Shown here: one piece after another, positions 1-26,631 of the stretch
How the letters are laid out: each line of letters starts with the position of its first letter
Position numbering within the stretch: the stretch's first letter is position 1
DNA from: a virus
DNA length: 64,000 nucleotides
Strand: one strand, 5' to 3'
Virus record (IMG/VR): IMGVR_UViG_3300042988_000771
Coordinates: 1-64,000 of that record
The notes under the pieces: generated by a model
Databases searched by the model: none
What the model was told of the DNA's origin: nothing
The model's input: the letters and a program-made list of their open reading frames with translations, nothing else
Program-made: the position numbers and the translations under genes

Positions 1-745
1 TCCGTGCCCTCGCGATCCGGCTGTCCGTGCGCGAGATGACCCGCTCGTTGACGGTGTTCTGGCTGCCGATCCTGCGCGCCTGCTGACCCGCCTGGCGGGA
101 CTTGTAGCCCAGGACACCGGCTGCCCCCGCGCTTCCCGCTGCCCCACCGGCCAGCCCGTACTGCTCGGCCTTCATCCGGCGCTGGCGACGGTCCTCGGGA
201 TTCAGGCCTGAGTACCTCTTGCGCTTGGGCGGAGCAGCAGGCTTGGGTGCCATCTTGAACTTGCGCTGCTGCGGAGGAGCGACCATCTTCTTGCCCTCGT
301 CATCGACGTCGTCCTCGTAGCGGACGAACTTCCCCGCGGCGATCTTGTTGCGGTAGTCCTTCATCCCCTCGGCCTTGGCGCGTCGCGCGTCTGCCTCTGC
401 CCTCTTGGACTCCATGTCGACGACGGCCTTGTGGACGACTCCGAAGGCTGACTTGGCCACCTTCTCTTCCCTTCTCGCTAGGGCTCGCTCGTTGGCGGCG
501 AAGGTCAGGCCGCTGACCCCACCTACGCCTGCTCCGGTAGTGACCAGGCCCAGCGAGGTCTTGTCCAGGTTGTCAGCAGCCTTGGGCGTCAGGCGCAGCT
601 TCTCGGCGACCTGTGGCGCCCGCTTGAGGGCAGACCGCGTGGCAGCAGCCCCGCCCTTGGTTCCCAGCGCAGACAGGCCCAGCGTGGCTCCCGTGACCGA
701 GAGTCCCGCCTGAATCCGATGGCGCCGGGCCATGTCCTTGGCCAT
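1..745 (-). CDS. AFGV-tagged basic Gly/Ala-rich protein, truncated at window edge
   Basis: Not in the ORF track. ATG at 743-745 overlaps the upstream stop and the frame is open to the edge. Reads MAKDMARR...EKVAKSAFGVVHKAVVD..., with the internal tag at 425-460. Confidence 0.8.
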   Translation of the reverse strand, partial: MAKDMARRHRIQAGLSVTGATLGLSALGTKGGAAATRSALKRAPQVAEKLRLTPKAADNLDKTSLGLVTTGAGVGGVSGLTFAANERALARREEKVAKSAFGVVHKAVVDMESKRAEADARRAKAEGMKDYRNKIAAGKFVRYEDDVDDEGKKMVAPPQQRKFKMAPKPAAPPKRKRYSGLNPEDRRQRRMKAEQYGLAGGAAGSAGAAGVLGYKSRQAGQQARRIGSQNTVNERVISRTDSRIARAR

Positions 746-1212
746 CAGAACCTGTTCTTCCCCGAGACCGGGACGATCTTGATCTTGGAGTTGTGCCTGC
801 CCGCGTTGTACTGGCGGGCGATCTTGTTGGACCGGGCGTTGTGGGCCATGCCAGCCCCGGTCACACCCGCGCCCGCCGTGAAGACGCCGCCCAGCAGGCC
901 AGCGGCGGCCAGCTTGGGCTTGTCCGCCACCCGGCTGATGACCTTCGCCGCCCGCATGGAGCGTGGGCCGACGACCTTGTAGCCGCCGACATCCGTGGTC
1001 TTCTTGTTCGCCAGGAACGCCTGGTGGTTGACCGCGCGAACAGCCTCCGCCACCTGCTCGGGCCTTGCTGCCGCATACGCCCCGCCAGCAGCGGCTGCGC
1101 CCATGAGCGTTCCGCCCGCCGCCCGCCGCCTGTTGGCCTTCTGGCGATGCGACTGCACGCGGGTGATCTCGTCCGAGTAGAGGCCCTTGGAGACCCCGAA
1201 GGCGTCCCTCAT
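745..1212 (-). CDS. AFGV-tagged protein, putative capsid-internal cargo
   Basis: Start moved to MRDAFGVSKG (ATG 1210-1212, just after the upstream stop). Contains two Gly/Ala hydrophobic segments and basic linkers. Confidence 0.8.
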   Translation of the reverse strand: MRDAFGVSKGLYSDEITRVQSHRQKANRRRAAGGTLMGAAAAGGAYAAARPEQVAEAVRAVNHQAFLANKKTTDVGGYKVVGPRSMRAAKVISRVADKPKLAAAGLLGGVFTAGAGVTGAGMAHNARSNKIARQYNAGRHNSKIKIVPVSGKNRF

Positions 1213-1213
1213 G

Positions 1214-2479
1214 TCAGTACCTACGCTGCTTGCCCATGCCGTAGCCCGCTGCCCCAGCCGTGCCAGCAGTAGCGCCAATGGTGCCGACAGCCGCACCCGT
1301 CGGGTGTGCAGCGGCGAAGTTGCCGACCTTGGTCGCGCCGGTCTTGATCTGGTTGAGGCCGGACTTGATGCCCGCTCCCGCGCCTACCGCCCGCGCACCG
1401 GCAGTGCCCGGCTTGTAGGGGGTCACGCCACCCTTGAAGCCAGTCTTGACTGCTCCGATGAGGGGCTTGAAGGAGATCTTCGAGACCTCCTCGTACTCGT
1501 GGTCCACCCCGAATGCGCTCTTGTGAATGTAGGACACGTTCGCCTCCCGCTCTGCGAGCCGCTGACGCAGCGACGCGTTCTCGGCCTCCATGGCCTTGCC
1601 ACGGGCCTTCTGGTACTTCTTCTTGGGGACGATGACGCCGTTGTGATACTCGCTCGCCCGCTCGCCCTTGCGGGCCGCACGCCAGTCGCCGGAGGCCAGC
1701 GCCTCGTTCTGGGCATCGCGTCCTGCGCGGTACTCGTTGGTGGCGGCACCGGACAACGCCCCCATGCCAGCGCCGACTCCTGCACCAATGCCCGCACCAG
1801 CGAGGAGCACCTTGCTCGGCACCCGCCCACCACTGGCAGCCATGCCAGCACCCGACGCCGCGCCCAGCCCTGCGCCCACGGCTGTGTGACCGCCCAGGGT
1901 CCGCCAGTTCTTGCCCGGCCGCTCGCCCTTCTTGGTGTAGCCAGCCTTGGACCGGATGTTGGCAGCGGCCCGCTCGCGCGCGTCCTCGGAGTCGAAGCCC
2001 CAGCCGCGGTCCTTCTTCTTCTCGATCTTGGACTTGTTGGGGTTGGCGCGCAGGTGACTGAGCTCGGCGCTGCGTCGCGCCTCCTGACCGGCAACAGACG
2101 CGCCGATGCGGCGCTTGCCCGACTTGCCGTGCCGGTAGGCCGCGTAGCCACCCACGGCGGCAGTGGTGCCAAGGAGCCCGCCAACGGCCCCGCCCGCACG
2201 CACGCGCGAGGCGCCCTCAACGGCCTTCATGGCGCTGAGGGTTCCGCCCACATTCGCGCTGCCCCCACTAGCAGCCCGCACGCCGTTCTCCACGGCGATG
2301 GCGCGCTGGGCACGGCTCACGTTGCGCAGCCTGGTGCCCGCCGTCCGTGCGCCGATCCGCTTGCCCGCGCTCTGGCCGACGATTGAGCCGCCCAGGAAGG
2401 CACCGGCGTACTTGGTGTTCCGCTTGTCGCCTTCCTCGCCCTTCCAGGCCTTGGCAACGCCGAACGCATCGGTGGTCAT
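1214..2479 (-). CDS. AFGV-tagged polyprotein with glycine-zipper segments
   Basis: Start MTTDAFGVAKA (ATGA overlap with the upstream gene). Internal YIHKSAFGVDHEYEEVSK and several GxxxG-rich helices. Confidence 0.8.
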   Translation of the reverse strand: MTTDAFGVAKAWKGEEGDKRNTKYAGAFLGGSIVGQSAGKRIGARTAGTRLRNVSRAQRAIAVENGVRAASGGSANVGGTLSAMKAVEGASRVRAGGAVGGLLGTTAAVGGYAAYRHGKSGKRRIGASVAGQEARRSAELSHLRANPNKSKIEKKKDRGWGFDSEDARERAAANIRSKAGYTKKGERPGKNWRTLGGHTAVGAGLGAASGAGMAASGGRVPSKVLLAGAGIGAGVGAGMGALSGAATNEYRAGRDAQNEALASGDWRAARKGERASEYHNGVIVPKKKYQKARGKAMEAENASLRQRLAEREANVSYIHKSAFGVDHEYEEVSKISFKPLIGAVKTGFKGGVTPYKPGTAGARAVGAGAGIKSGLNQIKTGATKVGNFAAAHPTGAAVGTIGATAGTAGAAGYGMGKQRRY

Positions 2480-4803
2480 TTCACTGCTCTCCCTACCCGC
2501 AAAACCTCGTCGGCATGCGAAATGGCGTTGTTGATCTTGGCGGCCAGCTTGGGCTGGGGCTTGCTTGCTTCGGCACGCAGTTCCTCGATGGGACGGGCTG
2601 CGTTGGGCTTGCGGGCACGGCGTACGTGCCCGCTCATGAACCTGTCCGTCACCACCGTGGCCAGCGTGCGTGGGGCCTTCTCCGGGCGGTCCACGACCTT
2701 CACCGGGACCTTGTCCAGCCCCGCCCACTCGGATGCCTGGAGGCGATGGTGGCCGCCCCGGATGACCGACTTCCCGTTCTTGTAGCGGTGGACGACGATC
2801 GGCTCGTCGGGCTTGAACCCCGACTCGGCCATGTTGACGGCGATGCGGGCGGTGTGGGACCGGTTGCCCGCTCGCGCTCCGCCCCCGCGCGCGATGGCCC
2901 GCAGGTCGGACACGGAGGCCTGGCCGCTCTTGGCCGACTCCGAGATGCGCTCGGACGCCCCGCCGTCGTCAGGAAGCTTCTTCCAGTAGGGGGTGGCTGC
3001 TCCTCCTGCGACCGCCACGCCACCAGCGACGGCCGCTTCCTCCTTGTGGCCCTTGGAGATGTAGTTCTTCTCCACCCGCTTGCCCGAGCCGTGGATGGAG
3101 AAGCCCGTGCGCTCTCCGTTCTTGACCATGTCCCACTGCTTGTCGTCGTTCACCTTGAAGCCCACCCACCAGCCGTGGGGGAGAGCGTCCGAGCGCAGGC
3201 CCATCTTCTGGAGCTTCTCGGGGGTGACGACGAAGGACTCCACCATGTCCGAGGTGTGCAGGGGCAGCTCTCCGTCACGGGAGTGCATGTCCCCGCCCTT
3301 GCGGGAGTCGATGACGTAGGAGTACGCCGCCTTCTCGATCTCCTCCAGCGGGATGTAGTCGCCCTGGAGGTCGATGACCTCCTCGCCGTTCAGGTGGGTG
3401 ACCGTGCACCAGCCGAACACCTGGCGCTTGTCGGTGTCCATCTTGGCGATCTCGCCCGTCCAGGTCAGTTCGGGACCGGCATCCTTGCGGACCTTCTGCT
3501 TCTTGGGCTTGAGCGTCTTGCGGGGTGCATGGCCGATCGGCACGCCGTACTTCTTGGCCCGGTGGTTGGCACCCAGCTGAGCCACGCCCACCGGGATGGT
3601 CGCCGCGCCTGCCACGCCGCCCGCGCCGATGAGGGCGAGCTTGCGGCCCTTGCGGTAGAGCTTGTCACCCGTCTGGTTGACGGTGTTCGCAACGTGGTCG
3701 GCGGCGCCCTTGATCTGGCCACCGACGTTGTCGGCCGCCGTCTTGACGGAGCCTGCCGCGCCCTTGACGGCGTCCCGCGTCTCGTTGACGCCCGCCCGCA
3801 CGTCCCCGACAGTCCCGCGAACCTCGTCCACCGTGCGGTTGACGCTCTCGGGCAGCTTGCGCGACTCGGCACCTGCGGACTGAATCGTGGACCGGGCCTC
3901 CGTGCCTGCCGCCCGCACAGTGGTGCGAGCCTCCTCGCCCGCTGCCTTCATGCCGCCACGGATGACGTTCTGGGCCTCGTCCCCGCCCGCCTTGAGGGCG
4001 GCCAGGCCGATCTTGCCCGCCTCGGTCTTGAAGCTCTTGGTGATGTCGTCACGACGACGCAGGGCCAGCGGCTTGGTGGCCGCCTTGGCCTTCTTGTAGT
4101 TGCCGATCGCCTTCGTGGCGGCCGGGTCGATTGCCCGGTAGCCCTCCCGTGCCATCTGGACCTTCTTGGACGGGACGATCGCGCTCATGTCCACGAGCTG
4201 CTCGGCAGCCTGGTGGATCGCCCGCGCATCGGGGGAGTCGGCCTTGGCGACCGTGTCGAGCAGGTCGCTGGCCATGCGCACGGCGGTGTCCGTGTCGATG
4301 CGTCCTGCCCGGCGAGCCTGGACGATGTCCCCGAGCGCCTTCTTGATCTCCTTCTTGGCCTCGCGACCGAGCACCCGGTTGGCCACGACGTCGCCCACGG
4401 TGTTGCCCGCCTGGAGGGTGACCGCGCCACCGGCGCCGATCCGGTACAGCCGGGCACGCCCCTCCTTCGTGGCGAGGTAGCGCCCGGCAGCCGTCGATGG
4501 CTCCTTCGAGTGCTTCCCCGATGCCGCGAGCATGCTGGTGACCGGACCGCCCTTGTAGGCGTCCGGGATGCTGCGGCGCAGGGCGGGGTTCTTGGCAGCC
4601 GCGACGAGGGCGGCGCCACCGGCTGCCAGCCCGACGACGTTGGAGGCGAGGCCAACCTGAGCCTCGCGCTTCTCCCGCTTCGCCTTGGCGCTGGGAACAT
4701 GGACCTCGGACGCATCTGCCTGCTTGGACACCACATCCCAGAGTTCACGGGAGTCGACGGCGTTTCCGAAGAGCTCGGCCACGATCACGTCGAAGGCGTC
4801 CAT
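2476..4803 (-). CDS. Prohead protease polyprotein: XkdF-like (peptidase S78-type) domain plus C-terminal ParB-like domain
   Basis: KRQVFGW...IDLQGD...GDMH...VESF...GWWVGFKV...TGFSIHG matches XkdF-type phage proteases (~3070-3460). IVV...IRGGHHRLQA...VPVKV is ParB/Srx-like (~2680-2900). Start MDAFDV is inferred from promoter spacing; the alternative start is 4821. Confidence 0.8.
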   Translation of the reverse strand: MDAFDVIVAELFGNAVDSRELWDVVSKQADASEVHVPSAKAKREKREAQVGLASNVVGLAAGGAALVAAAKNPALRRSIPDAYKGGPVTSMLAASGKHSKEPSTAAGRYLATKEGRARLYRIGAGGAVTLQAGNTVGDVVANRVLGREAKKEIKKALGDIVQARRAGRIDTDTAVRMASDLLDTVAKADSPDARAIHQAAEQLVDMSAIVPSKKVQMAREGYRAIDPAATKAIGNYKKAKAATKPLALRRRDDITKSFKTEAGKIGLAALKAGGDEAQNVIRGGMKAAGEEARTTVRAAGTEARSTIQSAGAESRKLPESVNRTVDEVRGTVGDVRAGVNETRDAVKGAAGSVKTAADNVGGQIKGAADHVANTVNQTGDKLYRKGRKLALIGAGGVAGAATIPVGVAQLGANHRAKKYGVPIGHAPRKTLKPKKQKVRKDAGPELTWTGEIAKMDTDKRQVFGWCTVTHLNGEEVIDLQGDYIPLEEIEKAAYSYVIDSRKGGDMHSRDGELPLHTSDMVESFVVTPEKLQKMGLRSDALPHGWWVGFKVNDDKQWDMVKNGERTGFSIHGSGKRVEKNYISKGHKEEAAVAGGVAVAGGAATPYWKKLPDDGGASERISESAKSGQASVSDLRAIARGGGARAGNRSHTARIAVNMAESGFKPDEPIVVHRYKNGKSVIRGGHHRLQASEWAGLDKVPVKVVDRPEKAPRTLATVVTDRFMSGHVRRARKPNAARPIEELRAEASKPQPKLAAKINNAISHADEVLRVGRAVK

Positions 4804-4809
4804 GTTCCT

Positions 4810-4828
4810 ATCGTCCTGCATCAGTCAC
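4810..4828 (-). promoter_or_regulatory. Late promoter motif, protease gene
   Basis: GTGAC-TGATGCAG-GACGAT-N6-ATG. Confidence 0.55.
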
Positions 4829-4834
4829 TCCACT

Positions 4835-6934
4835 TCACGGTGCGTCCAGCAGTTCGAGGTCGATGATGAGCACGCTCCTGACGGCCGGATCACCATCAGG
4901 TGACGGAACGTACTCATGCCTGGTCACCTTGTACTTGCCCTCGATCACCGACTTGTTTGGCGCATAGGGGCTGAGGTCTACCGGTCCCTCGTCGGTTCCC
5001 CACCATCCGTTCTTGAAGCGGAACAGGATGGGGACGATCGCGCGCGTGGAGCCCTCGTCCATTCCGTACCGGCTGATGGAGACGTCCTCGGGATCGTAGG
5101 AGCCGTACTGGCGTGCCTGTCGTGCGGCGTCCTGCCACAGTTCGCCCAGATTGTTCTCGCGCTCGTTGTTGACCGCAGCGGTCATCTCAATGGCAATCTC
5201 GCTGGCGCTGGCGCTCTTGATCCAGTGAGGATTGGTGAGCTCCTCGCTGGCCGCCGCCCGAGCAGAGTCTGCGGTCAGCGTCCGAGCGGCAAGGTGGGTC
5301 AGGTAGGTCTTCTCCTTTCCGGAGAAGGCCTCGGCAGCAGCACCCACCTCTGGGTCTGTGTAGATGTCGATCGCCCCGTCGATCTCGGCGTAGGAGGAGA
5401 TCGTCACGCCCATCCCATCGGCACCGATCTGGTTGCGCAGGAGATCGACCTCATCCGCCGCCATGGCCGCGTCGTAGGCGGAGGTGAAGGCAGGATGGTC
5501 GGCAAGGTCATCGACGAAGTTGTCCTCGGCATGGAGGACGGCGAACCCCTCCACCCCGTGCACGGAGGACGGGTCCTTCTGGATCACGCTGAAGTCGACG
5601 ATCTCCCCCTCGGAGGGCGGATCGTTCGCGTCGATATCAAGGCGTGTCGCGAGCACGTCGGGAACAGCCATCCACGCGTCCGTGTGGTGGACCCCCTCGC
5701 CGCCGAGGTTGGGGCGATCGTGATGCTGGACGATCGTCAGCGCCTGCTTCTTCTCGCCCACCAGGGCGTTCAGCACCGAGGCGTCCGCGACCTGCTGCTT
5801 GGTGTCCACCATCGTGCTCAGCACGGACGCGTCCGCGGCTCCGATGCTGTCCAGCACCGAGGCGTCAGCCAAGGCGCCCAGCACGGCAGCATCCGCCACC
5901 TGCTGGCCCTCGCGTGCCTTGGTGCGCACGGTCGTGCGCGCGTTGACCCGCGTGACCTTCGTGGCCTTGCGGGACTCCGTGGCGGCGAACTCCCCGTCGG
6001 CGTTCCGGTCGAACGGGTCCTTGCCCATCGCCTTGACGACATCGGTGCCCAGGTCGGGGTAGACCAGTTCCAGGTCGCACCGGCAGTTGGGATGGACGAC
6101 AGGGGCGTAGAACCGCTCCCCGCCGATGGTCTCGAAGCGCTCGTTGAGCGGGATGGTCACCCCGTGCAGCGGCCCGCACACCCCGCAGACCAGTTCGTCC
6201 TCGGCGGTGATCCACTTCTTCATGGTCCCCGGAGGCAACTGCCCGGTGCCCTCCATGATCATCCAGACCATGTTCTTGCCCACGCGCGAGGCCTTGTACG
6301 CCTCGGTGGTGCCCAGCCGGTCAGCCCGGTAGAGGAAGGCCCGGTCCACGAACATGCGGCTCGCGACCGGGATGGGATCGGTGACGTACTCGGTCTTGTC
6401 CAGCTTCGTCAGGCCCTGGACGTAGGACTGCATCTGGCGGGCGTCCAGTCCGTACGCCTCCCGCGAGCGCTGCCACGCGAGGTTGGCGCTCCATCCGGAG
6501 TTGACCTGGGCGTTGAACCCCTCCAGCAGCGCCTGCGTGGAGGTGCCGTGGACGTAGTCACCCAGTTCCGAGGCGTAGGAGGTCGCCAGCCGGGTCATCT
6601 CCTCGTAGGTCAACTGCTGGGTGGCACCCAGCCGATAGGCCTGGAGAACGGCTGGCACGGACGCCTGGAGCCACGCGGGGATGACCCGCTTGTAGATCCG
6701 CGCTGCTGCCTCGGCGATCTCCTTGTCGGTGAGCAGGTCCTCCTTGGAGAACTCGTGCTTCATCAGCAGGCGCAGGACCACCAGCGCAGCAGCGATCCCG
6801 ATGCCGATCTTGAGGTAGTCGGGGTGAGTGTCCACAGGCGCGTCCACAGCCTGTGGACCAGTCTCAAGGAAGGAAGGCTGGTTCAGGAACGCCGAGGGGC
6901 TCTGCGCGAGGAACTCCTCGGGCTGGATGCTCAC
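4835..6934 (-). CDS. MuF (SPP1 gp7-like) minor head protein with long C-terminal extension
   Basis: RADRLGTTE...KKWITAEDELVCGVCGPLHG...PVVHPNCRC is the MuF signature. About 400 aa follow it. Confidence 0.85.
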   Translation of the reverse strand: MSIQPEEFLAQSPSAFLNQPSFLETGPQAVDAPVDTHPDYLKIGIGIAAALVVLRLLMKHEFSKEDLLTDKEIAEAAARIYKRVIPAWLQASVPAVLQAYRLGATQQLTYEEMTRLATSYASELGDYVHGTSTQALLEGFNAQVNSGWSANLAWQRSREAYGLDARQMQSYVQGLTKLDKTEYVTDPIPVASRMFVDRAFLYRADRLGTTEAYKASRVGKNMVWMIMEGTGQLPPGTMKKWITAEDELVCGVCGPLHGVTIPLNERFETIGGERFYAPVVHPNCRCDLELVYPDLGTDVVKAMGKDPFDRNADGEFAATESRKATKVTRVNARTTVRTKAREGQQVADAAVLGALADASVLDSIGAADASVLSTMVDTKQQVADASVLNALVGEKKQALTIVQHHDRPNLGGEGVHHTDAWMAVPDVLATRLDIDANDPPSEGEIVDFSVIQKDPSSVHGVEGFAVLHAEDNFVDDLADHPAFTSAYDAAMAADEVDLLRNQIGADGMGVTISSYAEIDGAIDIYTDPEVGAAAEAFSGKEKTYLTHLAARTLTADSARAAASEELTNPHWIKSASASEIAIEMTAAVNNERENNLGELWQDAARQARQYGSYDPEDVSISRYGMDEGSTRAIVPILFRFKNGWWGTDEGPVDLSPYAPNKSVIEGKYKVTRHEYVPSPDGDPAVRSVLIIDLELLDAP

Positions 6935-9900
6935 GCGACCTTCTTGCGCCGGACAGCAGGAGGCTTCAGGCCCATGGCCCTGACGGCGTACTCCACGTCC
7001 GATGTGGTGAACTCGTCCTCCATCTCCGGCGTGACCTGGGGATGCGCCAGCAGCCGCTCGTCATGAGCATCGGCCACCTTCCCCAGGAAGGTGTCCACGA
7101 CGTCGCGTGCGTTGCCGTTGTACTTGGGGTGGGCGTGGATCTGGGCCACCGCATTGGAGATGCGCTTCTTGGTGGCCGCATTGGCCGTGCGGCCCTGCTT
7201 GTCCATCGCGTGGCTGGCGATCTGCACCAGCTCGGGCGCCGTGTAGTCGCGGAACTCGATCACCGTGTTCAGGCGCGACTGGAGGCCGGGGTTGGTCTCC
7301 TCGCGGAACTCCTGCATCTCCTTGGGGTAGCCCGCGAAGATGAACACCGTGTCGGGGTTCTCCGACATGAACGGCACCAGCTCGTCGATGACCTCACGTC
7401 CGTACTCGTTGGAGTTGAGGGTGTAGGCCTCGTCGATGAAGATCACCCCGCCCTTGCCCATCTCCAACTGGTTGCGGGTTCGCTCGGCGATGTCGTTGGC
7501 CGTGCCGCCCACGAGGTCCTTCTTGGACAGCTTGAGGAAGTTGGTGTTCTCGGTCAGGCCGATGTCGTAGTACAGCTTGGTCATGATCTCGGCCACAGTG
7601 GTCTTGCCGGTGCCGGGGTTGCCCGCGAAGATCATGCTCATCGGGCGGTCGGCGTTGGGCTTGCCCATTCGCTCGCGGCGCTTGGCGGCAGCCGCACGCG
7701 CGACCAGGCGGTCCATCTGGCCGACCATCTCGTCCATGCCCACCATCGAGGCGAGCTCGTTGCGGTAGGGAGCCGCTGCTGCCTTCAGGGCGTCGACCTC
7801 GTCGGCAGCCCCCTCCTCGGGGGCGTCATCTTTTGGGACGACCCCCGACAGCGCCTGCTTGGTCTCCTCGTCCGAGAAGGTGTGGATGACGCGGGATGCC
7901 TCGGCATCTGCCGCGGCCTTCTCCGCGTCCGCGCGCTCCTGACGCAGCCTGAAGGCCGTGGAGATGGCGGCGAGGTCCTCGGCCTCCCTGCGAATGTCCT
8001 TGCGCGAGAGGCTCGGCTGAGTGGAGATCAGCTCCTTGTCGTAGTTGTCCCACGCCTGCAAGAACCCGCGCAGGTTGGCGGCACGATCCTTGACGGCGGC
8101 CTTGACCTCGGCATGCGTGCTGTCCATCGTGATGCCCAGCGAGGCCACCTGGGGGTTGACGCTCTTGTTCAGCATCGGCGTGATGACCGACTCGTACCAC
8201 GCCGTCGTCTCCCCGCTGGGGATGCGGGACATGGCGAAGTCCCGGACGCCGAGATTGTTGACCAGCGTCATGTCGTCCTCGGGGAGGGGGATGACCTTGG
8301 GCGAGCGATCCCACATGCCCGCGTCGACGTCGAACATCTTCTTGCTCTTGATGAAGGTGAGTGCGGCCTCCACCTCGCGCTGCCCCGCGGGGTCAGCAAG
8401 GCGAGCCCGGACCTCGTCCTCGGTCCCTCCCAGGACGGCCTTGACCGGATCGGCCTCGCGGAACGCATCGGTGATCGCGCCCTGCGTTCCCGTGGTGTTC
8501 ATCGGGCTGAGCACCGTCTGCGCGCGCAGGGCGCGGATGAGGTCCAGTGTGGCGCTCTGGCGCGACTGCGCGGGATCAACAGGGGCGGGAGTGCGATCGG
8601 GAGACGGGCTGCTCACCCGCACTGTGGTCTGCTGCTCCTCCTCGTCAACGAACTCGTCGGCAGTGGGCTCAGGAGCGTCGCCGCTCTTCTTCCGACTGGA
8701 CCAGTTCTGGTAGTTGATCTGGTCCCCGTGGACCTTCCCCCGGCCCGTGATGGACTCGTCGTAGTAGCCAGTGGCGACCGAGTGCGGGCGGATGTAGCGA
8801 GGCTTGACGTAGCCCCTGTCAGTCTTGTCCGCCGCCAGTCCATCCGTCCACGGGGTGAAGACGGGGTCCTTGATGTAGTACGGGAACTGCTCCTTGAGGG
8901 CGTTCATGGCCGTGGCGTACCCGCGGGCGTTCAGGCGCAGGGGGTTGATCGACTCCGCGTAGACGCGGGTGGCCTTGTCGACCGCACGCTCCACGTCCTT
9001 GATGGCGGCCAGCTCCTCGGCCGCGGAGTCGGGGTTGGCCATCCGTGCGCGGAAGGCGGCCTTGTCCCCGCCCTGGCGGTCGATCTGGATCTCGCGGCGC
9101 TGCGCCCACTCGTCGACGTTGTTGCCCTTGGCGTTGTCGATGACGTGCTGGTTGATGGCGTCCCACTTGACCTTGTTGGTGGCCACCTCGCTGAGCTTCG
9201 GCTCCCTGGGCTCCTTCTCGATCAGGTCGTCCAGCGCCTTGCGGTAGCGATCAGAGTCCTTGGCCCCGTACTTGACGGCCTCCATCTCCAGCTCCACGCG
9301 GCGGTCATGCGGGATGCTCCCCAGGGAGACCTTCTCCGACTTGACCGCATCCAGGACCTGCCCGTAGCGGCCCACCATGCGGGCAGCCTTGTCGTTGTAG
9401 CGACGGGAGCCACGGAAGTCATCGTCGAACTCCATGGTGAACACCCCGGAATGCGACACCACAGTGACCGAGCGAGCGCCGCCCACCAGACCCGTGTAGA
9501 TGTCCTCGGTAGTAAGCCCACCATATGCGCGTGTGCGGATGTACTCCCCGCCCTGGAGCTTCGAGAGGTTCTTGAGGTTGAACGGGAGGTACCAGTCGTC
9601 CCCATAGCCCATCGCCTCCGTGACAACCTCGCCCTTGCGGTCGATGATGATGCCCTGCGAGGGAGGGATCGTCCCCGACTTCCGGTTCAGCTCGTACAGG
9701 CCAGGATCGGGAAGCAGCGAGCGCATGTGCTGGATGGTCCGCGACGGACGGCGATCCTCGCGGACGCCCTCCTCCGGGCGACGGGAGTTGCCCGTCTCGT
9801 CCTTGTACCCGTGGATGAGGGTGTCATGGGCAGCGCGGCCTGACCCCTTCTGCTGGCGCAGGGTGTCGATCTCGTCCTGGTAGCCGGTCCACGGCTTCTT

Positions 9901-10977
9901 CTCCACGCCGCGGTAGCGGTACGCGCTCTTGCGTGCGGTGGGGCCGATGACCTTCTCCGCCTCGGGCGCGTACTTGCCCGCCCACTCTCCGACATGCAGG
10001 GCGAGCTGGGCCTTCGGGGGCAGGTACTTGCCGCCCATGTCCAGCGCGAGCTTGGAGGAGGCCTCCAGGCGCCGCCACAGGCGATTGGTGTTGGAGGTCT
10101 GGTCCCGGTTCTGCCGGTCCGTCCAGGAGTCGCGGAATGCCCCGCCGCCTGCGACTCCTGCCACCCCAGCGCCCGTGGCGAAGTCAGCGAAGCCGGGAGA
10201 CCCGGTCATCGCCGTCAGGGCGTCCAGGGACAGCGTGCGCGCGTCCCCATTCCTCTCGGAGAGAGCAATGACCCGCTCCACACGGCGGTCGTTGGCGTAG
10301 TCACTCTCGGTGACCAGGCCGCGATCGGTCTGTGGGCTGGCCTGGTCGGTGAGCACCTGCGCGGCGCGCTGGGCCTGCCCGACCGTGCCATCGGTGTAGG
10401 CCGCCTGGACATAGGTGTCCGCGAGGCTGTTCCCCAGCGTTCCCCGCAGGTCATCCAGTGCACGGACCACCTGTGCGTAGTCATGCTGATAGGCGGCCTT
10501 GCGATCGGGGCTGAGCGTGGTGGGGTGCGCGCGCAGGCCGGTGGTCGCTGCCGCCACGTCGTCCGTCATGGGCGTACGAGGGCTGTTGTGGATGATCTTG
10601 CGGTTCATCACGCGCCAGCGACCACGCGCGTCGCGCATCTGGTCCTTGACCTCCTGGGAGCGCTCCCACTCGGTGAGCTGGCTGGCCTTGGAGATGAGCT
10701 CGACGATCCCCCGCGCATCCTGGGCGGACTTGGAGACCGAGCGGCTCAGGCCACGGGTGACCTCCTCGATGCGCTTGGAGACGTAGGCGCGGGAGACCTG
10801 CTCGATGTAGCCGGAGTTGTGCTCCATGAGCTGGGTGGTGTTGTCGAACAGCGCCTTGGAGACGACGAAGGGAGCCTCCTGGGGATGCTCCATGACCCAC
10901 TCGTAGGCATCGACCGCAGCCGCGAGGTTGAACGGCTCGTCCTCACCGATGCCGAAGAACTCCTTGGAGTACGTCAC
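6931..10977 (-). CDS. Large multidomain head-associated protein with a degenerate JAB-like domain and a C-terminal CbbX/SpoVK/EccA-family AAA+ ATPase
   Basis: GNPGTGKT (Walker A), GGVIFIDEAY (Walker B), NPGLQSR and GNARDV are typical of CbbX-family AAA. The gene lies between portal and MuF. Confidence 0.8.
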   Translation of the reverse strand: MTYSKEFFGIGEDEPFNLAAAVDAYEWVMEHPQEAPFVVSKALFDNTTQLMEHNSGYIEQVSRAYVSKRIEEVTRGLSRSVSKSAQDARGIVELISKASQLTEWERSQEVKDQMRDARGRWRVMNRKIIHNSPRTPMTDDVAAATTGLRAHPTTLSPDRKAAYQHDYAQVVRALDDLRGTLGNSLADTYVQAAYTDGTVGQAQRAAQVLTDQASPQTDRGLVTESDYANDRRVERVIALSERNGDARTLSLDALTAMTGSPGFADFATGAGVAGVAGGGAFRDSWTDRQNRDQTSNTNRLWRRLEASSKLALDMGGKYLPPKAQLALHVGEWAGKYAPEAEKVIGPTARKSAYRYRGVEKKPWTGYQDEIDTLRQQKGSGRAAHDTLIHGYKDETGNSRRPEEGVREDRRPSRTIQHMRSLLPDPGLYELNRKSGTIPPSQGIIIDRKGEVVTEAMGYGDDWYLPFNLKNLSKLQGGEYIRTRAYGGLTTEDIYTGLVGGARSVTVVSHSGVFTMEFDDDFRGSRRYNDKAARMVGRYGQVLDAVKSEKVSLGSIPHDRRVELEMEAVKYGAKDSDRYRKALDDLIEKEPREPKLSEVATNKVKWDAINQHVIDNAKGNNVDEWAQRREIQIDRQGGDKAAFRARMANPDSAAEELAAIKDVERAVDKATRVYAESINPLRLNARGYATAMNALKEQFPYYIKDPVFTPWTDGLAADKTDRGYVKPRYIRPHSVATGYYDESITGRGKVHGDQINYQNWSSRKKSGDAPEPTADEFVDEEEQQTTVRVSSPSPDRTPAPVDPAQSRQSATLDLIRALRAQTVLSPMNTTGTQGAITDAFREADPVKAVLGGTEDEVRARLADPAGQREVEAALTFIKSKKMFDVDAGMWDRSPKVIPLPEDDMTLVNNLGVRDFAMSRIPSGETTAWYESVITPMLNKSVNPQVASLGITMDSTHAEVKAAVKDRAANLRGFLQAWDNYDKELISTQPSLSRKDIRREAEDLAAISTAFRLRQERADAEKAAADAEASRVIHTFSDEETKQALSGVVPKDDAPEEGAADEVDALKAAAAPYRNELASMVGMDEMVGQMDRLVARAAAAKRRERMGKPNADRPMSMIFAGNPGTGKTTVAEIMTKLYYDIGLTENTNFLKLSKKDLVGGTANDIAERTRNQLEMGKGGVIFIDEAYTLNSNEYGREVIDELVPFMSENPDTVFIFAGYPKEMQEFREETNPGLQSRLNTVIEFRDYTAPELVQIASHAMDKQGRTANAATKKRISNAVAQIHAHPKYNGNARDVVDTFLGKVADAHDERLLAHPQVTPEMEDEFTTSDVEYAVRAMGLKPPAVRRKKVA

Positions 10978-11822
10978 GACTTCTCCTTCTTCTTCGGGTA
11001 GCGCAGTTCCAGTCGGTGGACGCGCTTCTCGTCCCTCTGGTGCTGGCGGTAGTTGGCGACCGTCAGCGGTGCGCCCACAGCCACCACGGTGCCGCCCAGC
11101 AGCGCCGGATGGCTCACGATCCTGCCAGCCTTGCCGGGGAGATTCTTGCCTGCGCTCTGGGCCAGCGAGACCGGCTTGAGGACGCGGGTGTTGGTCAGCG
11201 CACCCGAGCCCGGAGCCTTCAACTGCCGCAGGTTGGGGTACTTCTCCGCCCAGCGGTTGTAGGTGCCGATGGCGGCGTGAGAGGCGCCTGCGGCCGTCGC
11301 CGTGCCCGCGAGGTCGGTGTTCAGGCCAGACTGGCGCTCCTTGAGCTTGGCCCGGCGCACGCGCTTGTCGTCCCCGATGGTGAAGGCCTTGGACACGCCC
11401 TTGGCACTGCGCATGGGCGGGTAGTACTCCTTGGTCTCCGGGTCGGTGTAGCCGTGCTTCTCGTAGTGGAGAAGTTCCTTCATCTCGCGATCCTGCGTCT
11501 TCTTGCGCTGGGCGCGAAGGTACGCAGGAGAGTCGTACTTGGACCGCTCGATGCCGCCTGTGGGTGCCTCGAAGCGCCCCGGCAGCGGCTGGCCGCCGCG
11601 ACCATGCAGGAGGCGCTTAATCCCCTTGTTGCGTGGGGCGAAGCCGTGGGTAGCTGGGCGCGTGTACTCCACGCCCTTGGCAGTGTTGCGCGACTGGACC
11701 TTGGCCGTCTTGGCCCACTCCTGCGCCTCACCCTGGTTGTAGGTGGAGTACTTGACCCGACCCTCAGGCACCAGTGGTCCGTCGGACTTGGACACGCGCT
11801 CTACACCGAAGGCGTCCTTCAC
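10974..11822 (-). CDS. AFGV-tagged basic protein
   Basis: Starts (M)KDAFGVERVSKS, has internal GVSKA and C-terminal hydrophobic segments, and overlaps the portal stop by GTGA. Confidence 0.8.
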   Translation of the reverse strand: MKDAFGVERVSKSDGPLVPEGRVKYSTYNQGEAQEWAKTAKVQSRNTAKGVEYTRPATHGFAPRNKGIKRLLHGRGGQPLPGRFEAPTGGIERSKYDSPAYLRAQRKKTQDREMKELLHYEKHGYTDPETKEYYPPMRSAKGVSKAFTIGDDKRVRRAKLKERQSGLNTDLAGTATAAGASHAAIGTYNRWAEKYPNLRQLKAPGSGALTNTRVLKPVSLAQSAGKNLPGKAGRIVSHPALLGGTVVAVGAPLTVANYRQHQRDEKRVHRLELRYPKKKEKS

Positions 11823-13723
11823 TTCTTCTCCTCCGGCTTCTTCTTGGCAGCGTCAGCCTTGGGCTTGAACTTCATCGCCTTGAGCTTCTCGCCGTGGACC
11901 TCCTGGCCCTGCTTGGACTGCAAGCGGGCCTGACGGACCTTCTCCGCGGCCAACTGCGCCTCGGTCTTGGTGCCGATCTTCTCCCGCTCAAGGGCCTGCC
12001 GGTTGACGGCGTCGGTGTGCTTGAGCGCCATCTCCTTGTCGCGGGTGTCCGGGGGCTGGGTCTTGAGGGCGGCCTGAGCCTTCATCTCCTCCAGCGTCAA
12101 CTGGTGCTTCTCCTCGGCATGGCGCTGGAGCTGCTTCTTGCCCTCCAGGTCCAGTTCGCCCGACTGCACGGTCTGGGCAGCCTGAGCCGCCTGCACCTCG
12201 GGGTTGGACTGCTCGGAGGCCTGCTGCTCGGCCAGCGTCATCTGCTGGGCCTGCTGCTCCATGCCCATCTTCTGCTGCTCCATCTGCATGGCGCCCTGCT
12301 CCGCCTGCTGGCTCAGCCCGATCATCTCCACGCGCTGCTGCGCGAGGCGCATGATGTTGGCCTGCCGTGCCTCGGTCTCCTTGACCGCCTCGGACGTCTC
12401 GTCCAGCTTGGGCAGGCGAGCGGCATCGCGCAGGAACTTCTCCAGCTCCGGGTCCGGGAACCACTGGATGCCCGCGCTCTGCAACTGGCCCATGAAGGAG
12501 GACAACTGGGTGATGTCGGGCGGGTCGATGTCCCCGGCGATCAACTGGGGCAGCTCGTCCAGCTTCCACCCGTTGACCTCGAACAGGCGGGGGATGGCGT
12601 AGCGGTTGAAGACGTCCGCGATGGAGTCCGCGATGGACTGGATGCCCGCGCGGAACAGCCCGGTCTTGTCGGTGTGCAGGGAGTAGGAGCCCACGGACTG
12701 ATGGCCCACCAGGATGAAGTCGGCCAGCACCGTGCCGAGGATGCGCTCCTCGTAGCGCCGGATGATGCCGTTGATGTCGAACTGCCGCGTTCCTCCGCCG
12801 CCCAGCAGCGAGAAGTCGAACATGTCCTGCTTGGTGTCGGGGTCGATCATCCGCGGGATGATCACGCCCTCCTGCTCGTTGCGGCGCACGGAGCGGACCA
12901 TCGTCTTGAAGGCCTGGACCATCTTCTCCTTGTCCGTGCCCTTGGGGGCGGACAGGTAGTCGGCCGGGACGCGGGCCATCGGCAGGCCAGCGAGGTCGCG
13001 CTCGGCGCCGATCCCCTCCAGTTCCTCCAGGCGCTTCTTCATGTACCAGGGGCGGTAGGCGTTCCTCAGGAAGGAGCGGCCCTCAGGGTTGCCCTTGGCC
13101 GTGCTCACGCGGAAGAGCAGGGACTTCTCGATGGGGATGACGACCTGCTTGTAGGCCGGGGGAGCCATCTGCACCATGGCGCGGATGCCGCCCGTGTCAT
13201 CGAACACCCAGCGGGTGAGGGTCTCCTGAGCGCGGATGGGGATCTTCCGCCATCCGATGCGCCCGTCCGTGAACTTGGAGCGCTTCTTGGGGTCCTTCTC
13301 CCACGGGGAGACCCGGCGCTTGTAGACGATCTCGTGCCAGGACCAGCCGAAGGGCAGCATGGACAGCACCTCGGAGATGACGTCGTCCCAGGTGGAGGAC
13401 ATGTCCTCCATGCACTGCTCCACGAACTCCGCGGCCTTCTTGGCCTCGGCATCGGACCCCGAGGGCTCCACGCGCCAGTCGATGCCGCGCAGGAGGCGAT
13501 CCACGGCGAACAGCAGCGCCCCCACGATGGGGTCGTTGTCGGACATCTCCTTGTAGACCTGGACGGCCTTGCGCCCCTTGAGCTGGGGCAGGAACTCCTC
13601 GTTGATGAAGCCCGAGGTGCGACGAAGGCCCGTCGCGCCCAACTCGATGGTGGGCGAGACGTTCTTGGGGATCTCCTGACCGGGGAAGAGATCAGTCCCG
13701 CCCTCGTACTGGGTCGCACTCAT
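11819..13723 (-). CDS. Portal protein (Mu gp29/DUF935-like) with Gln/Glu-rich coiled-coil tail
   Basis: YKEMSDNDPIVGALL, GWSWHEIVY, GNPEGRSFLR and ERDLAGLP motifs. Directly downstream of terL. Confidence 0.85.
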   Translation of the reverse strand: MSATQYEGGTDLFPGQEIPKNVSPTIELGATGLRRTSGFINEEFLPQLKGRKAVQVYKEMSDNDPIVGALLFAVDRLLRGIDWRVEPSGSDAEAKKAAEFVEQCMEDMSSTWDDVISEVLSMLPFGWSWHEIVYKRRVSPWEKDPKKRSKFTDGRIGWRKIPIRAQETLTRWVFDDTGGIRAMVQMAPPAYKQVVIPIEKSLLFRVSTAKGNPEGRSFLRNAYRPWYMKKRLEELEGIGAERDLAGLPMARVPADYLSAPKGTDKEKMVQAFKTMVRSVRRNEQEGVIIPRMIDPDTKQDMFDFSLLGGGGTRQFDINGIIRRYEERILGTVLADFILVGHQSVGSYSLHTDKTGLFRAGIQSIADSIADVFNRYAIPRLFEVNGWKLDELPQLIAGDIDPPDITQLSSFMGQLQSAGIQWFPDPELEKFLRDAARLPKLDETSEAVKETEARQANIMRLAQQRVEMIGLSQQAEQGAMQMEQQKMGMEQQAQQMTLAEQQASEQSNPEVQAAQAAQTVQSGELDLEGKKQLQRHAEEKHQLTLEEMKAQAALKTQPPDTRDKEMALKHTDAVNRQALEREKIGTKTEAQLAAEKVRQARLQSKQGQEVHGEKLKAMKFKPKADAAKKKPEEKK

Positions 13724-13729
13724 AGGTCA

Positions 13730-13748
13730 ATCCTCTCAGGCGCGTCAC
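13730..13748 (-). promoter_or_regulatory. Late promoter motif, portal gene
   Basis: GTGAC-GCGCCTGA-GAGGAT-N6-ATG. Confidence 0.55.
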
Positions 13749-15223: not shown

Positions 15224-15224
15224 C

Positions 15225-24367: not shown

Positions 24368-24813
24368 CAGAACGCTCCGCTCAGCGCGACGGGCTTGCGC
24401 GGGACCTGGAAGGTCGTCACCGCGTAGAGGGCGTGCAGGTGGACGGTGTCGAACTGGACCATGTAGTCCGCGGCCTCACAGTCCCATGCGTGCTGCTGGG
24501 AGCCCACGGTGATCATCAGGGTGTAGCGGTCCTGGCAGAAGGCGGTGATGAGGGCACCGATCTTGGTGTCCATGTCCGCCTGCGTGCTGCCCTTGACGTA
24601 CACGCTCAGGGGCTCCATGACGTTGGTCCGCCTGCGGGAGACGGTGATGTCCCCATCCACCCAGGGGGCGGACACCTGCCTGCGGTCCCAGGACACCTGC
24701 GCGCCCATGGCCGAGGGACCTGCCAGCACATAGGAGGTGTGGTCGTTGATGTCCAGGTCACCCAGGCTCAGGGCTGTCCTGGTGACCTTGGCGACGATGG
24801 TGAGATCGGTCAT
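24367..24813 (-). CDS. Distal tail (Dit)-like protein
   Basis: SAPWVDG...RR...LSVYVKG...D.KI..L pattern and position at the head of the tail block. Confidence 0.45.
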   Translation of the reverse strand: MTDLTIVAKVTRTALSLGDLDINDHTSYVLAGPSAMGAQVSWDRRQVSAPWVDGDITVSRRRTNVMEPLSVYVKGSTQADMDTKIGALITAFCQDRYTLMITVGSQQHAWDCEAADYMVQFDTVHLHALYAVTTFQVPRKPVALSGAF

Positions 24814-25292
24814 GCGGTCCTCAGCAGGGTCTTGGGCAGGCTTGCTGCTGCCATCCCAAGGTAGTCAGGCCGGTAGCCGATCTGCTGCATGAAGGCGCCC
24901 ATGGCGCGTCGTCCACGCTTGCTGGAGTGCACGAGCTTGTCCCCTGCGGACAGGACGTTGACCTGCGCCTTGACGGGCGCCTCCTTGGCCTTGAGCGTGA
25001 GCGTCCTGCCCCGCGAGATGACCTTCTGCGCTCCTGCGCCCTTGGACACGTGCTCAACCCCGAAGGCATCGCTCTTGCCGAACGACATGCGGGTGGCGTA
25101 GCGCTCCTGCTGGGTGGCAACGGCCTTCTTCGTTGCGGGATCGAGGAGAGCCTTGGCCTTCACCGGGTCCCAGTGGACGAAGTTGCCGGGCTGTGCTGGT
25201 ACGAGCTTGACCTTCTGAGCAGCCTGAGCGCCCCTCTTGACTGGACGAACCACATCCAGGAGGGACTTGTTGACTCCGAAGGCATCGGTCAT
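24810..25292 (-). CDS. AFGV-tagged protein with two tags
   Basis: MTDAFGVNKS at the N-terminus and internal FGKSDAFGVEHVSKG. Confidence 0.8.
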   Translation of the reverse strand: MTDAFGVNKSLLDVVRPVKRGAQAAQKVKLVPAQPGNFVHWDPVKAKALLDPATKKAVATQQERYATRMSFGKSDAFGVEHVSKGAGAQKVISRGRTLTLKAKEAPVKAQVNVLSAGDKLVHSSKRGRRAMGAFMQQIGYRPDYLGMAAASLPKTLLRTA

Positions 25293-25519
25293 CGGCGCAC
25301 CAGCTTGAGCAGCTTGGCAGCCACCTTGCCCTTCTTGCGCGGGAAGGCGTCAGAGGCCGTGTAGCGCATGACCTCGCGGGTGTCCATCCGCGCCATCAGG
25401 CGGCCACGCTCGGTCATGTCCGGGCCGGTGTACTTGGGCTTGGGTGTTCCTCCCCGCAGCATGGCATCGGCCTGAGCCTCGGTCATGGCCTTGTGAACGA
25501 CCCCGAACGCGCTGATCAC
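25289..25519 (-). CDS. AFGV-tagged small basic protein
   Basis: Starts (M)ISAFGVVHKA. Confidence 0.75.
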   Translation of the reverse strand: MISAFGVVHKAMTEAQADAMLRGGTPKPKYTGPDMTERGRLMARMDTREVMRYTASDAFPRKKGKVAAKLLKLVRR

Positions 25520-26250
25520 AGGTGGACCTTCGCGTCCTTGTTGCGCCCACGACCAGCAACGGCTCCTGCACCCGCGAGCAGGACAGCAGGGGCAGCGACA
25601 GCAGCGGCCGTCTTGCCCTTGCCCCAGCGACCGATGCGCCCGAGCTTGGGGTTGAACACCTTGCCCGCAGCCTTCTCCCCCGGCGTGCGGATGTCCTTCA
25701 TGGAGGGCGTTCCGCCCTCATGGAGCTGGTGACCTGCCCAGATCTTGCTCTCCAGGGGCGTCTGGGCCTTCGTGGGCAGATGGTCGGCGTTCCACGTCTT
25801 GCGTCCCGCTGCCACCACGCCAGCCCCAGCGCCTGCGCCTGCACCGCCACCGGCAATGCCCATGACCGTCGAGGTCTTGTCGGACTTGGCCACCTTGGTC
25901 TTGTGGGCGGCGAACGAGCCACCTGCGGCTGCGCCACCGAGGACGGGGACCGCTGCCAGGGCAAGGCCTGTCTTGCCGCCCTTGACCCGCGCTGTGCGTG
26001 CCCACTCCATCGGGTTGTACGCCCCGCCTACGCCCTTGGCTGCGCCCTTGAGCGCTCCGCTGCGGGAGTGGACAGCGTGCTTGCCCTTCTCGCCGTAGCC
26101 CACTGAGCCACGCTGGGCTGCTGCCAGGGCTGCCAGAGGGGCATTGCCCAGCACTGCACCACCTGCTGCTGACCCACCGATGATGGCTGCTCGCTTGGTC
26201 TTCTCGCCCTTGCTCACGAGGTCCCGGTCAACACCGAATGCGTCCTGCAT
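25516..26250 (-). CDS. AFGV-tagged glycine-zipper protein
   Basis: Starts MQDAFGVDRDLVSKG. An internal KVAKS separates two units, each with two Gly/Ala helices. Confidence 0.8.
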   Translation of the reverse strand: MQDAFGVDRDLVSKGEKTKRAAIIGGSAAGGAVLGNAPLAALAAAQRGSVGYGEKGKHAVHSRSGALKGAAKGVGGAYNPMEWARTARVKGGKTGLALAAVPVLGGAAAGGSFAAHKTKVAKSDKTSTVMGIAGGGAGAGAGAGVVAAGRKTWNADHLPTKAQTPLESKIWAGHQLHEGGTPSMKDIRTPGEKAAGKVFNPKLGRIGRWGKGKTAAAVAAPAVLLAGAGAVAGRGRNKDAKVHL

Positions 26251-26308
26251 CTGTCCTCCTAAGTCGGGCCAGCAGGGCTATGCCCACCTCACCCTGCTGG
26301 CTATGACC

Positions 26309-26327
26309 AGTCTCTCAGGGGCGTCAC
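26309..26327 (-). promoter_or_regulatory. Late promoter motif, AFGV/tail operon
   Basis: GTGAC-GCCCCTGA-GAGACT. Confidence 0.55.
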
Positions 26328-26337
26328 GCAGGGCTGA

Positions 26338-26625
26338 CTACTGCGACGCCCTCCACCGGGCCATCTCGGCGTCATGACGACGCCCAGCAGCGAGATCCTT
26401 GTTGCTCTGCTCCACGCGTGCTGCACGCGTGGACGCAGCGTTGGCGTTCACCCTGCGCAGCTGATTGCGTCCCGCCTTGGTGGTGCGGGGGAAGTGGGTG
26501 GTCAGGTAGCGCTTGACGGGGTTGGCCCCAAAGCCCGCCCTGAAGTTGTTCTTGGCCGCTACGGCTGCTGGCTGGAACAGTCCCTTGGAGATGTCCCCGC
26601 GCTCTACCCCGAATGCGTCTCTCAT
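26338..26625 (-). CDS. AFGV-tagged small basic protein
   Basis: Starts MRDAFGVERGDISKG. Confidence 0.8.
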   Translation of the reverse strand: MRDAFGVERGDISKGLFQPAAVAAKNNFRAGFGANPVKRYLTTHFPRTTKAGRNQLRRVNANAASTRAARVEQSNKDLAAGRRHDAEMARWRASQ

Positions 26626-26631
26626 AGCTCT

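Follow-up and report, generated by a model that had tools for sequence, protein, structure and literature searches.

How does a phage mature its head proteins when its head module encodes a protease of the XkdF family, and which residues would mark the cuts? This question is raised by the window analysed here, the first 64 kb (64,000 nucleotides) of IMG/VR virus record IMGVR_UViG_3300042988_000771, a single 78,015-bp contig of an uncultured phage. Its head module encodes a 781-amino-acid (aa) protein with an XkdF-like prohead protease domain, a MuF-like protein and a 1348-aa protein, and several other proteins of the genome start with the tag M-x-[D/S]-A-F-G-V (AFGV tag). An interpretation made from the letters of the window (the sequence-only reading) had described recurrent [VI]-x-K sites at domain boundaries of these proteins and had proposed that they are polyproteins cut after lysine, in analogy to the code of T4 gp21. 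According to our analysis, the tripeptide [VI]-[S/A/H]-K (positions P3, P2 and P1), mostly followed by a small residue at P1', is probably the site at which the phage's own XkdF-type (assemblin/HK97-like) prohead protease cuts after lysine. The proposed lysine-specific, gp21-like code thereby stood with regard to enrichment, conservation of the lysine and placement at joints; it had to be restricted to S, A or H at P2, and one of its sites, at residue 460 of the protease protein, became doubtful.

The broad motif proved uninformative. In the three proteins for which a recurrent code had been claimed, [VI]-x-K was present at chance level, with 9 observed versus 8.95 expected sites in the protease protein, 4 versus 3.35 in the MuF-like protein and 8 versus 7.95 in the 1348-aa protein; seven head-module proteins pooled contained 32 versus 30.6. 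We then compared a head/AFGV group of 13 proteins (5,046 aa) with the other 75 predicted proteins, using Poisson P values. The narrow motif [VI][SAH]K was 3.4-fold enriched in the head/AFGV group (29 versus 8.5 expected, P=3e-8) and [VI]SK occurred 16 times versus 2.0 expected (P=6e-10). The other 75 proteins contained 20 versus 15 and 6 versus 5.0 of these sites, respectively. In the head group, sites with a different residue at P2 ([VI][non-SAH]K) tended to be rarer than expected (18 versus 29.6), and control patterns were flat: K[SAH][VI] 9 versus 8.5, [VI][SAH]R 14 versus 9.2 and [LMF][SAH]K 5 versus 8.0. The motif signal is real but narrower than originally described: it resides in [VI]-[S/A/H]-K, so P2 matters. 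Several of the sites listed in the sequence-only reading (IKK↓A, ITK↓S) are indistinguishable from chance (arrows mark the position after the lysine).

A separate excess of the broad motif was observed in the tape-measure protein (1657 aa, genome positions 66137-71110 on the minus strand, corresponding to L001 2137-7110), which contains 18 [VI]-x-K sites versus 9.2 expected (P=0.007) and carries VSK↓AFLGV at aa 373-380. This excess may be due to chance or helix periodicity.

The AFGV tags provide the clearest context for the motif. The genome contains 12 of them, nine at the starts of open reading frames (ORFs) and three internal. Individual copies encode Ala, Gly and Val by different synonymous codons, which indicates selection on the peptide and rules out an origin as a DNA repeat. 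To this set we added matches from related metagenomic contigs, which resulted in 43 distinct AFGV-type leaders, including three on a tail-module protein that are probably unrelated. The first lysine after AFGV was preceded by V or I at P3 in 37 of these 43 leaders and by S, A or H at P2 in 38, and in 27 the residue after it was A, G or S; AFGV-[ED]-[HR]-x-x-[VI]-S-K was the most frequent spacing. Downstream of this lysine the sequences diverge completely and the protein bodies are unrelated, so that a short N-terminal leader is common to otherwise unrelated proteins. The internal tags are preceded by another hydrophobic-x-K, and the checked translations confirmed the claim that all three are bracketed by lysine sites on both sides. 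One of them lies in a 427-aa protein that spans the contig junction, from position 745 to genome position 77229. Variant tags were found on the protease protein (AFDV..LFG) and on the 1348-aa protein (FFGI), and a conserved [S/E]-AFL near the start of the MuF-like protein is perhaps another variant. These variants, together with the analogy to T4, lead us to infer that AFGV may act as a loading tag.

Five of the 12 AFGV tags lie within positions 24810-26628. This second cluster is well separated from the head module and precedes genes that match a PHROG 'head protein' family (23096-23518 and 23960-24367; the cluster is upstream of both). The gene next to it (24367-24813) starts with MTDLTIVAK↓V, which resembles a leader without AFGV.

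The strongest predicted substrates are, besides the 12 AFGV leaders, a scaffold-like protein, and thus lie partly outside the range covered by the sequence-only reading. The scaffold-like protein has seven [VI][SAH]K sites versus 0.34 expected, which occupy 7 of its 13 lysines, and all seven are kept in relatives. Cutting at these sites would yield pieces of 7 to ~85 residues. LSK and VGK sites are also conserved, and the leader-like sequence DAFLDADISK is located near the C-terminus. In distant relatives with 37-52% GC (guanine plus cytosine), the XkdF protease gene is directly followed by the scaffold gene, and the scaffolds of these relatives contain 6 versus 0.78, 5 versus 0.85, 4 versus 0.96, 3 versus 0.60 and 3 versus 0.86 expected motif sites. 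One site is conserved ~20 aa ahead of their common C-terminal NPxxYxxY end. Sequence searches for solved structures of the scaffold and the protease protein found none.

Two further features of the scaffold-like genes were observed. The N-termini of the encoded proteins share E-[IV]-S-L-V-D-x-[PG]-A-N, which resembles the C-terminal strand of the HK97-type Peptidase_S78 domain; the match has E=0.003, below the Pfam cut-off, and the corresponding PHROG annotation is 'head maturation protease'. Loci with this S78-like start are L001 12377-13153 (minus strand), L040 7251-8036, L043 12104-12940 and L046 14542-15225, and the XkdF protease ORF just upstream of these genes stops right after the Ser motif. 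Possibly, the protease is split, and the N-terminus of the scaffold serves to complete or anchor it. In two scaffold homologs, on L061 (~3850-4064) and L030 (upstream of 21270), a glycine-rich basic, cargo-like insert separates conserved scaffold blocks and is bounded in L061 by GVSK↓G and GK↓T. These inserts look like a cargo unit inside the scaffold gene.

In the 1348-aa protein, the four sites that had been listed for the first 100 aa were present in the translation (VSK↓A at 41, VSK↓R at 68, VSK↓S at 83 and ISK↓A at 97). They are the only [VI]SK sites of this protein (four versus 0.46 expected) and are all confined to its first 97 residues. An alignment of the N-terminal 330 aa across 11 homologs at ~26% identity has only four invariant columns, which include I95 and K97, and K83 and A98 are nearly invariant. 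In the AlphaFold model, helices extend to residue 99 and a folded part, predicted with better confidence, begins at ~123; the linker between them is of low confidence. The body of the protein might be a putative cargo that is freed by the N-terminal cuts. In the MuF-like protein, VVK↓A had been placed right after HPNCRC; it is present at aa 301, 15 residues past this zinc-like motif and at the end of the conserved MuF part; the protein also has a long C-terminal extension. A hydrophobic-x-K is kept at this place in 10 of 10 homologs (VVK, IVK, FAK, IAK, VTK, LSK and others).

The MuF-like and 1348-aa proteins and their homologs also have a common motif, [RH]-[DP]-x-x-x-G-[RQE]-[FW], ~15-25 residues past the conserved lysine site. 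The regions concerned are aa 302-328 of the MuF-like protein (window positions 5950-6030; forms RNADGEF and HPRGxGGRF) and aa 97-125 of the 1348-aa protein (10600-10690; RDARGRW and RRDPxTGQF). It may represent an anchoring or packaging motif.

The protease itself is identified with confidence: the match to PF14550 scored 71.2 bits (cut-off 24) and covers model positions 4-126 of 126. In 14 homologs, the most distant at ~30% identity, His513 (..MH), Ser575 (FS[IV]) and the pair Glu528-Ser529 are invariant, whereas His577 is not conserved. Within the head module the gene is a neighbour of those for portal, scaffold and capsid, and activity of the enzyme on head proteins is predicted. All sites that had been listed for this ORF were found in its translation: VVSK↓Q (aa 33), IKK↓A, VAK↓A (193), ITK↓S, VRK↓D (446), IAK↓M (460) and ISK↓G (590). 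The leader that ends at residue 33 has L17, G19 and K33 invariant in 8 of 8 relatives, with the pattern AFDV..LFG..[VI][SA]K; the sequences diverge past K33, and the confidence of the predicted structure falls from this residue. Site 193 (ISK, FAK, VSK, VAK or VQK in 6-7 of 8 relatives) precedes a conserved P....H motif and is located at a helix end, where model confidence falls. Site 446 is a hydrophobic-x-K in ~7 of 8 relatives (VKK, FAK, FRK, ITK, LAK); given the high chance background of the broad motif, it is a possible, weakly indicated release site for the N-terminus of the protease domain. Around site 590, the model has a linker of low confidence (aa 577-611). The proteins of six relatives that lack the ParB fusion terminate at most a few residues away from this site, and the one relative with the fusion (the contig of L002/L007) has VSK↓G at the joint. 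The lysine of IAK↓M (K460) is conserved in all 14 homologs, stand-alone proteases included. The idea that the sites fall on domain boundaries thus holds for residues 33 and 590 of this protein, 301 of the MuF-like protein and 97 of the 1348-aa protein, and not clearly for 460.

We further compared the conservation of motif lysines with that of the remaining lysines in four alignments. Motif lysines were the more conserved ones in the scaffold (0.98 versus 0.53), the MuF-like protein (0.89 versus 0.24, the motif lysine being present in 8 of 9 relatives), the N-terminus of the 1348-aa protein (0.75 versus 0.42) and the protease protein (0.82 versus 0.58). Arginine replaced a motif lysine in only 1 of 119 alignment cells, compared to 6-12% for other lysines. 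A P1 pocket would be expected to require lysine this strictly and not to accept just any basic residue.

From these sequence patterns we infer cleavage itself, a targeting role of AFGV, the release of many small peptides, packaging in the head and ejection of cargo. In this scheme, a procapsid would be built from the gpE-like capsid protein around the separate scaffold-like protein on a Mu-like portal. Proteins tagged with M-x-[D/S]-AFGV would enter it via the tag, including the protease (AFDV..LFG) and the 1348-aa protein (FFGI). The protease would then remove the tags at the terminal [VI]-[SAH]-K, separate tandem tag-cargo units at the internal tags, and release its own domain on both sides, from the N-terminal extension as well as from the ParB-like domain. 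It may also trim the 1348-aa AAA+ protein at its N-terminal part and cut at the joint that follows the MuF domain, and would chop the scaffold at at least seven sites into pieces small enough to exit.

Several observations weigh against this interpretation, besides the chance level of the broad motif. The leader sites are of common ancestry, so their counts are not independent. Proteins that must stay intact were examined for avoidance of [VI][SAH]K, which did not turn out to be decisive: the capsid protein family shows none (10 versus 9.9 expected), portal homologs are mildly depleted (11 versus 23.4, again counted over related, non-independent sequences), and the terminase family has an excess (20 versus 10.1) due to one inherited site. 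This site, EKVSK↓D (aa 307-311 here), is conserved across terminase homologs, a protein that is not expected to meet the protease; the tripeptide is therefore insufficient alone to mark a cut site, and context (a flexible stretch inside the procapsid) must matter. The P2 preference is looser in distant homologs, which have IIK↓S, VFK↓S, FAK and LSK at aligned places, and the cleavage rule may actually extend beyond [SAH]. Sites 41 and 68 of the 1348-aa protein are within predicted helices. K460 lies inside the Pfam domain, in a predicted strand; IAK↓M may be a structural, family-wide feature of the first strand of the XkdF domain and need not be a cut site. Both AlphaFold models served for rough boundaries only, with a mean pLDDT (predicted local distance difference test score) of 46 for the protease protein and 58 for the first 330 aa of the 1348-aa protein. 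The protease domain itself reached a pLDDT of only 50-76, too poor for a fold search, and the sequence search found no relative in the PDB. Finally, the literature on XkdF-type protease specificity, judged by title and abstract, yielded no treatment of cleavage sites.

Could the motif be a signal that is bound rather than cut? AFGV...[VI]SK might dock cargo, protease and scaffold onto each other or onto the portal or capsid, with the lysine serving for contact. The constant association of the motif with AFGV in the leaders, the leader-like DAFLDADISK near the scaffold C-terminus, the sites in predicted helices and the capsid protein that does not avoid the motif would all suit such a role. However, no AFGV is near the motif at six of the seven scaffold sites, at residues 68, 83 and 97 of the 1348-aa protein and at 193 and 590 of the protease protein. 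The bracketing of internal tags on both sides, the divergence immediately past the lysine and the near absence of arginine, which is easier to reconcile with a P1 pocket than with a charge contact, also speak for cutting, as do the protease encoded in the same module and a scaffold that must be cleared somehow. We therefore regard docking as unlikely.

It is likewise rather improbable that processing follows another rule, such as a broader hydrophobic-x-K, the AFGV core or a host protease, of which [VI][SAH]K would merely be the commonest form. While the variant sites in distant homologs (those named above and VTK), the conserved VRK↓D-type sites ahead of the protease domain and the conserved LSK and VGK of the scaffold point in this direction, in the head group [VI][non-SAH]K is rarer than expected and [LMF][SAH]K shows no enrichment, and domain and family profile searches revealed no second protease in the head module. 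A tripeptide without any function, i.e. a by-product of composition, amphipathic helices or the common ancestry of duplicated leaders, was already disfavoured and appears highly improbable. Such a by-product would be compatible with the chance level of the broad motif, the paralogy of the leaders and the [VI]-x-K excess in the tape-measure protein, a protein from outside the head. It would not account for strong enrichment in unrelated proteins with flat reversed and arginine controls, the same enrichment in scaffolds of very different GC, or the selective conservation of motif lysines inside poorly conserved regions.

Starting from cleavage at [VI]-[S/A/H]-K as the preferred explanation, it may be speculated that the AFGV tag plus [VI]-S-K forms a portable loading-and-release cassette of a large uncultured clade of high-GC phages with XkdF-type proteases. 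Any protein or tag-cargo chain could be loaded in this way and freed by a lysine-specific protease that is itself tagged, cuts itself from a ParB-like nuclease and is maybe active only when the S78-like strand of the scaffold N-terminus completes it. We put this forward tentatively and consider it doubtful in its full extent.

The features discussed are compiled in Table 1. Positions 1-248 and 77768-78015 of the contig are repeats of each other (248 bp, one mismatch, at offset 127). This makes the assembly either circular or terminally redundant, and we therefore read it as a circularly assembled phage genome. Its GC content is ~62-69%. The head module is on the minus strand in the order terminase, portal, tagged proteins, MuF, protease, tagged proteins, scaffold-like protein, cement and capsid. 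The 333-aa capsid protein matched Phage_cap_E just below the Pfam cut-off (22.4 versus 22.9 bits) and contains zero [VI][SAH]K sites. An N-terminal delta domain was not seen in it, although no search was aimed further at this feature. Megablast gave no match, and no close cultured relative was found. The best matches of the portal are Arthrobacter phages (~45% identity), whose head module differs, and the protease protein matches Rhizobium and Roseobacter phages over the protease domain only.

Table 1 Features of the head module and of the AFGV-tagged genes. Positions refer to the window unless indicated otherwise; arrows mark the position after the motif lysine.
Feature	Position	Strand	Detail	Conservation
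Large terminase	13745-15301	-		
Mu-like portal	11819-13723	-		
282-aa protein with AFGV leader	between portal and 1348-aa protein	-		
AFGV leader, 282-aa protein	11787..11822	-	VKDAFGVERVSK↓S, ends in VSK	L002/L007, L009, L010, L013
1348-aa protein	6931-10977	-		
N-terminal ~97-aa helical part of 1348-aa protein	10687..10977	-	FFGI variant tag, four [VI]SK sites	
Body of 1348-aa protein	6931..10686	-	AAA+ ATPase at aa 1115-1227 (PF00004, E=3.5e-12)	
MuF-like protein	4835-6934	-		
VVK↓A, MuF-like protein	6032..6040	-	aa 299-301, end of conserved MuF part	
781-aa protease protein	2476-4821	-	XkdF-like protease domain, then ParB-like domain	
N-terminal leader, protease protein	4723..4821	-	M..MDAFDV..LFG..VVSK↓Q, AFGV-tag variant ending in VSK at aa 33	
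VAK↓A, protease protein	4243..4251	-	aa 191-193	
VRK↓D, protease protein	3484..3492	-	aa 444-446, ~12 residues before protease domain	
XkdF-like (Peptidase_S78_2) prohead serine protease domain	3070..3453	-	aa 457-584 (PF14550, E=1e-19)	
ISK↓G, protease protein	3052..3060	-	aa 588-590, joint of protease and ParB-like domains	
ParB-like domain	2674..2943	-	~aa 627-716, behind protease (PHROG ParB-like families, E=9e-6 to 5e-4)	
Three basic glycine-rich proteins	after protease gene; last one crosses contig junction	-		
AFGV leader, 421-aa basic glycine-rich protein	2450..2479 (gene 1214-2479)	-	MTTDAFGVAK↓A	L002/L007
Internal AFGV tag, 421-aa protein ORF	1478..1528	-	IHK↓SAFGVDHEYEEVSK↓I (VSK↓I end)	identical arrangement in L002
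AFGV leader, 155-aa protein	1186..1212 (gene 745-1212)	-	MRDAFGVSK↓G	
Internal AFGV tag, 427-aa protein	428..460	-	VAK↓SAFGVVHK↓A	tag and upstream VAK in L052, L057, L058
Scaffold-like protein	genome 76377-77153 = L001 12377-13153, beyond window	-		
Cement protein, gpE-like capsid protein, small tagged protein	beyond window, after scaffold-like gene			
Second cluster, four small basic genes with AFGV leaders	24810..26628	-	..ERGDISK↓G, ..DRDLVSK↓G, ..VHK↓A, ..NK↓S	
Internal tag in second cluster	near 25035-25073	-	FGK↓SDAFGVEHVSK↓G	

A prohead-protease consensus combined with capsid-targeting leaders is known from other phages; new is the combination of a lysine-specific motif, an XkdF-family protease and the AFGV tag in a clade of mid-sized uncultured phages. 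If correct, this would be the first substrate rule for the widespread family of XkdF-type prohead proteases, for which we found none in the literature searched. The scheme of T4 and the giant phages would be extended to mid-sized, siphophage-like viruses with another protease family and the opposite charge at P1, and the sequence would allow the mature termini of a dozen proteins to be predicted. Standard tryptic proteomics of virions would hide exactly these cuts, because trypsin also cleaves after lysine.

The protease family nearest to XkdF is that of HK97, in which gp4 (Peptidase S78) cleaves gp5, the capsid protein, at K103↓S104, where the chain is unstructured (PMC10275583). The two systems would have in common an assemblin-like serine protease, lysine at P1, a small P1' residue and sites in flexible stretches, and the scaffold described here has an S78-like start. 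In HK97, however, the substrate is the capsid delta domain, whereas here a separate scaffold and about a dozen tagged proteins are the predicted substrates, and the sequence of the capsid protein does not point to maturation by removal of a delta domain. We know of no multi-substrate consensus or leader tag for HK97.

Assemblin-like peptidase, MuF and ParB domains have also been described in the 'polyvalent' virion proteins of phages and conjugative elements, which are encoded by late genes; for these proteins, packaging, processing into units and delivery along with the DNA have been predicted (Iyer et al. 2017, PMC5512222). The same domains occur among the late virion genes of this phage, and several unrelated domains are joined in single polypeptides, as in the protease with its ParB-like domain, the 1348-aa protein with AAA+ and the MuF-like protein with its extension. 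No cut-site motif or leader tag is named in that study. The assemblin-like peptidase is C-terminal there, whereas the ParB-like domain follows the peptidase here, and the cargo consists mostly of small basic glycine-rich units instead of enzymes.

The closest parallel in function is T4, where gp21, cutting at L/I-x-E, breaks the scaffold gp22 into several fragments, takes off capsid-targeting leaders of 10 residues and also cleaves itself (PMC9026906); the giant phages phiKZ and SPN3US follow the same scheme and cut after Glu (PMC10052503). In T4 (leaders including those of IPI-III and Alt) as well as here, a three-residue motif is located on leaders of unrelated proteins, in many copies in the scaffold and at the protease's own ends; here, the identity of the motif that ends the leaders with the one multiplied in the scaffold is seen at the sequence level. 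The predicted outcome is also alike, with leaders removed, the scaffold in small pieces and the cargo kept in the head. Differences are the predicted P1 residue (Lys instead of Glu), the siphophage-like genome of 78 kb, whose capsid protein is gpE-like, the conserved AFGV core of the leader, and the tags inside ORFs, which form tandem tag-cargo units. The T4 system is established, the one described here is predicted from sequence. The protease is XkdF/S78_2 and not of the gp21 family; the system works like that of T4 but belongs to a different protease family.

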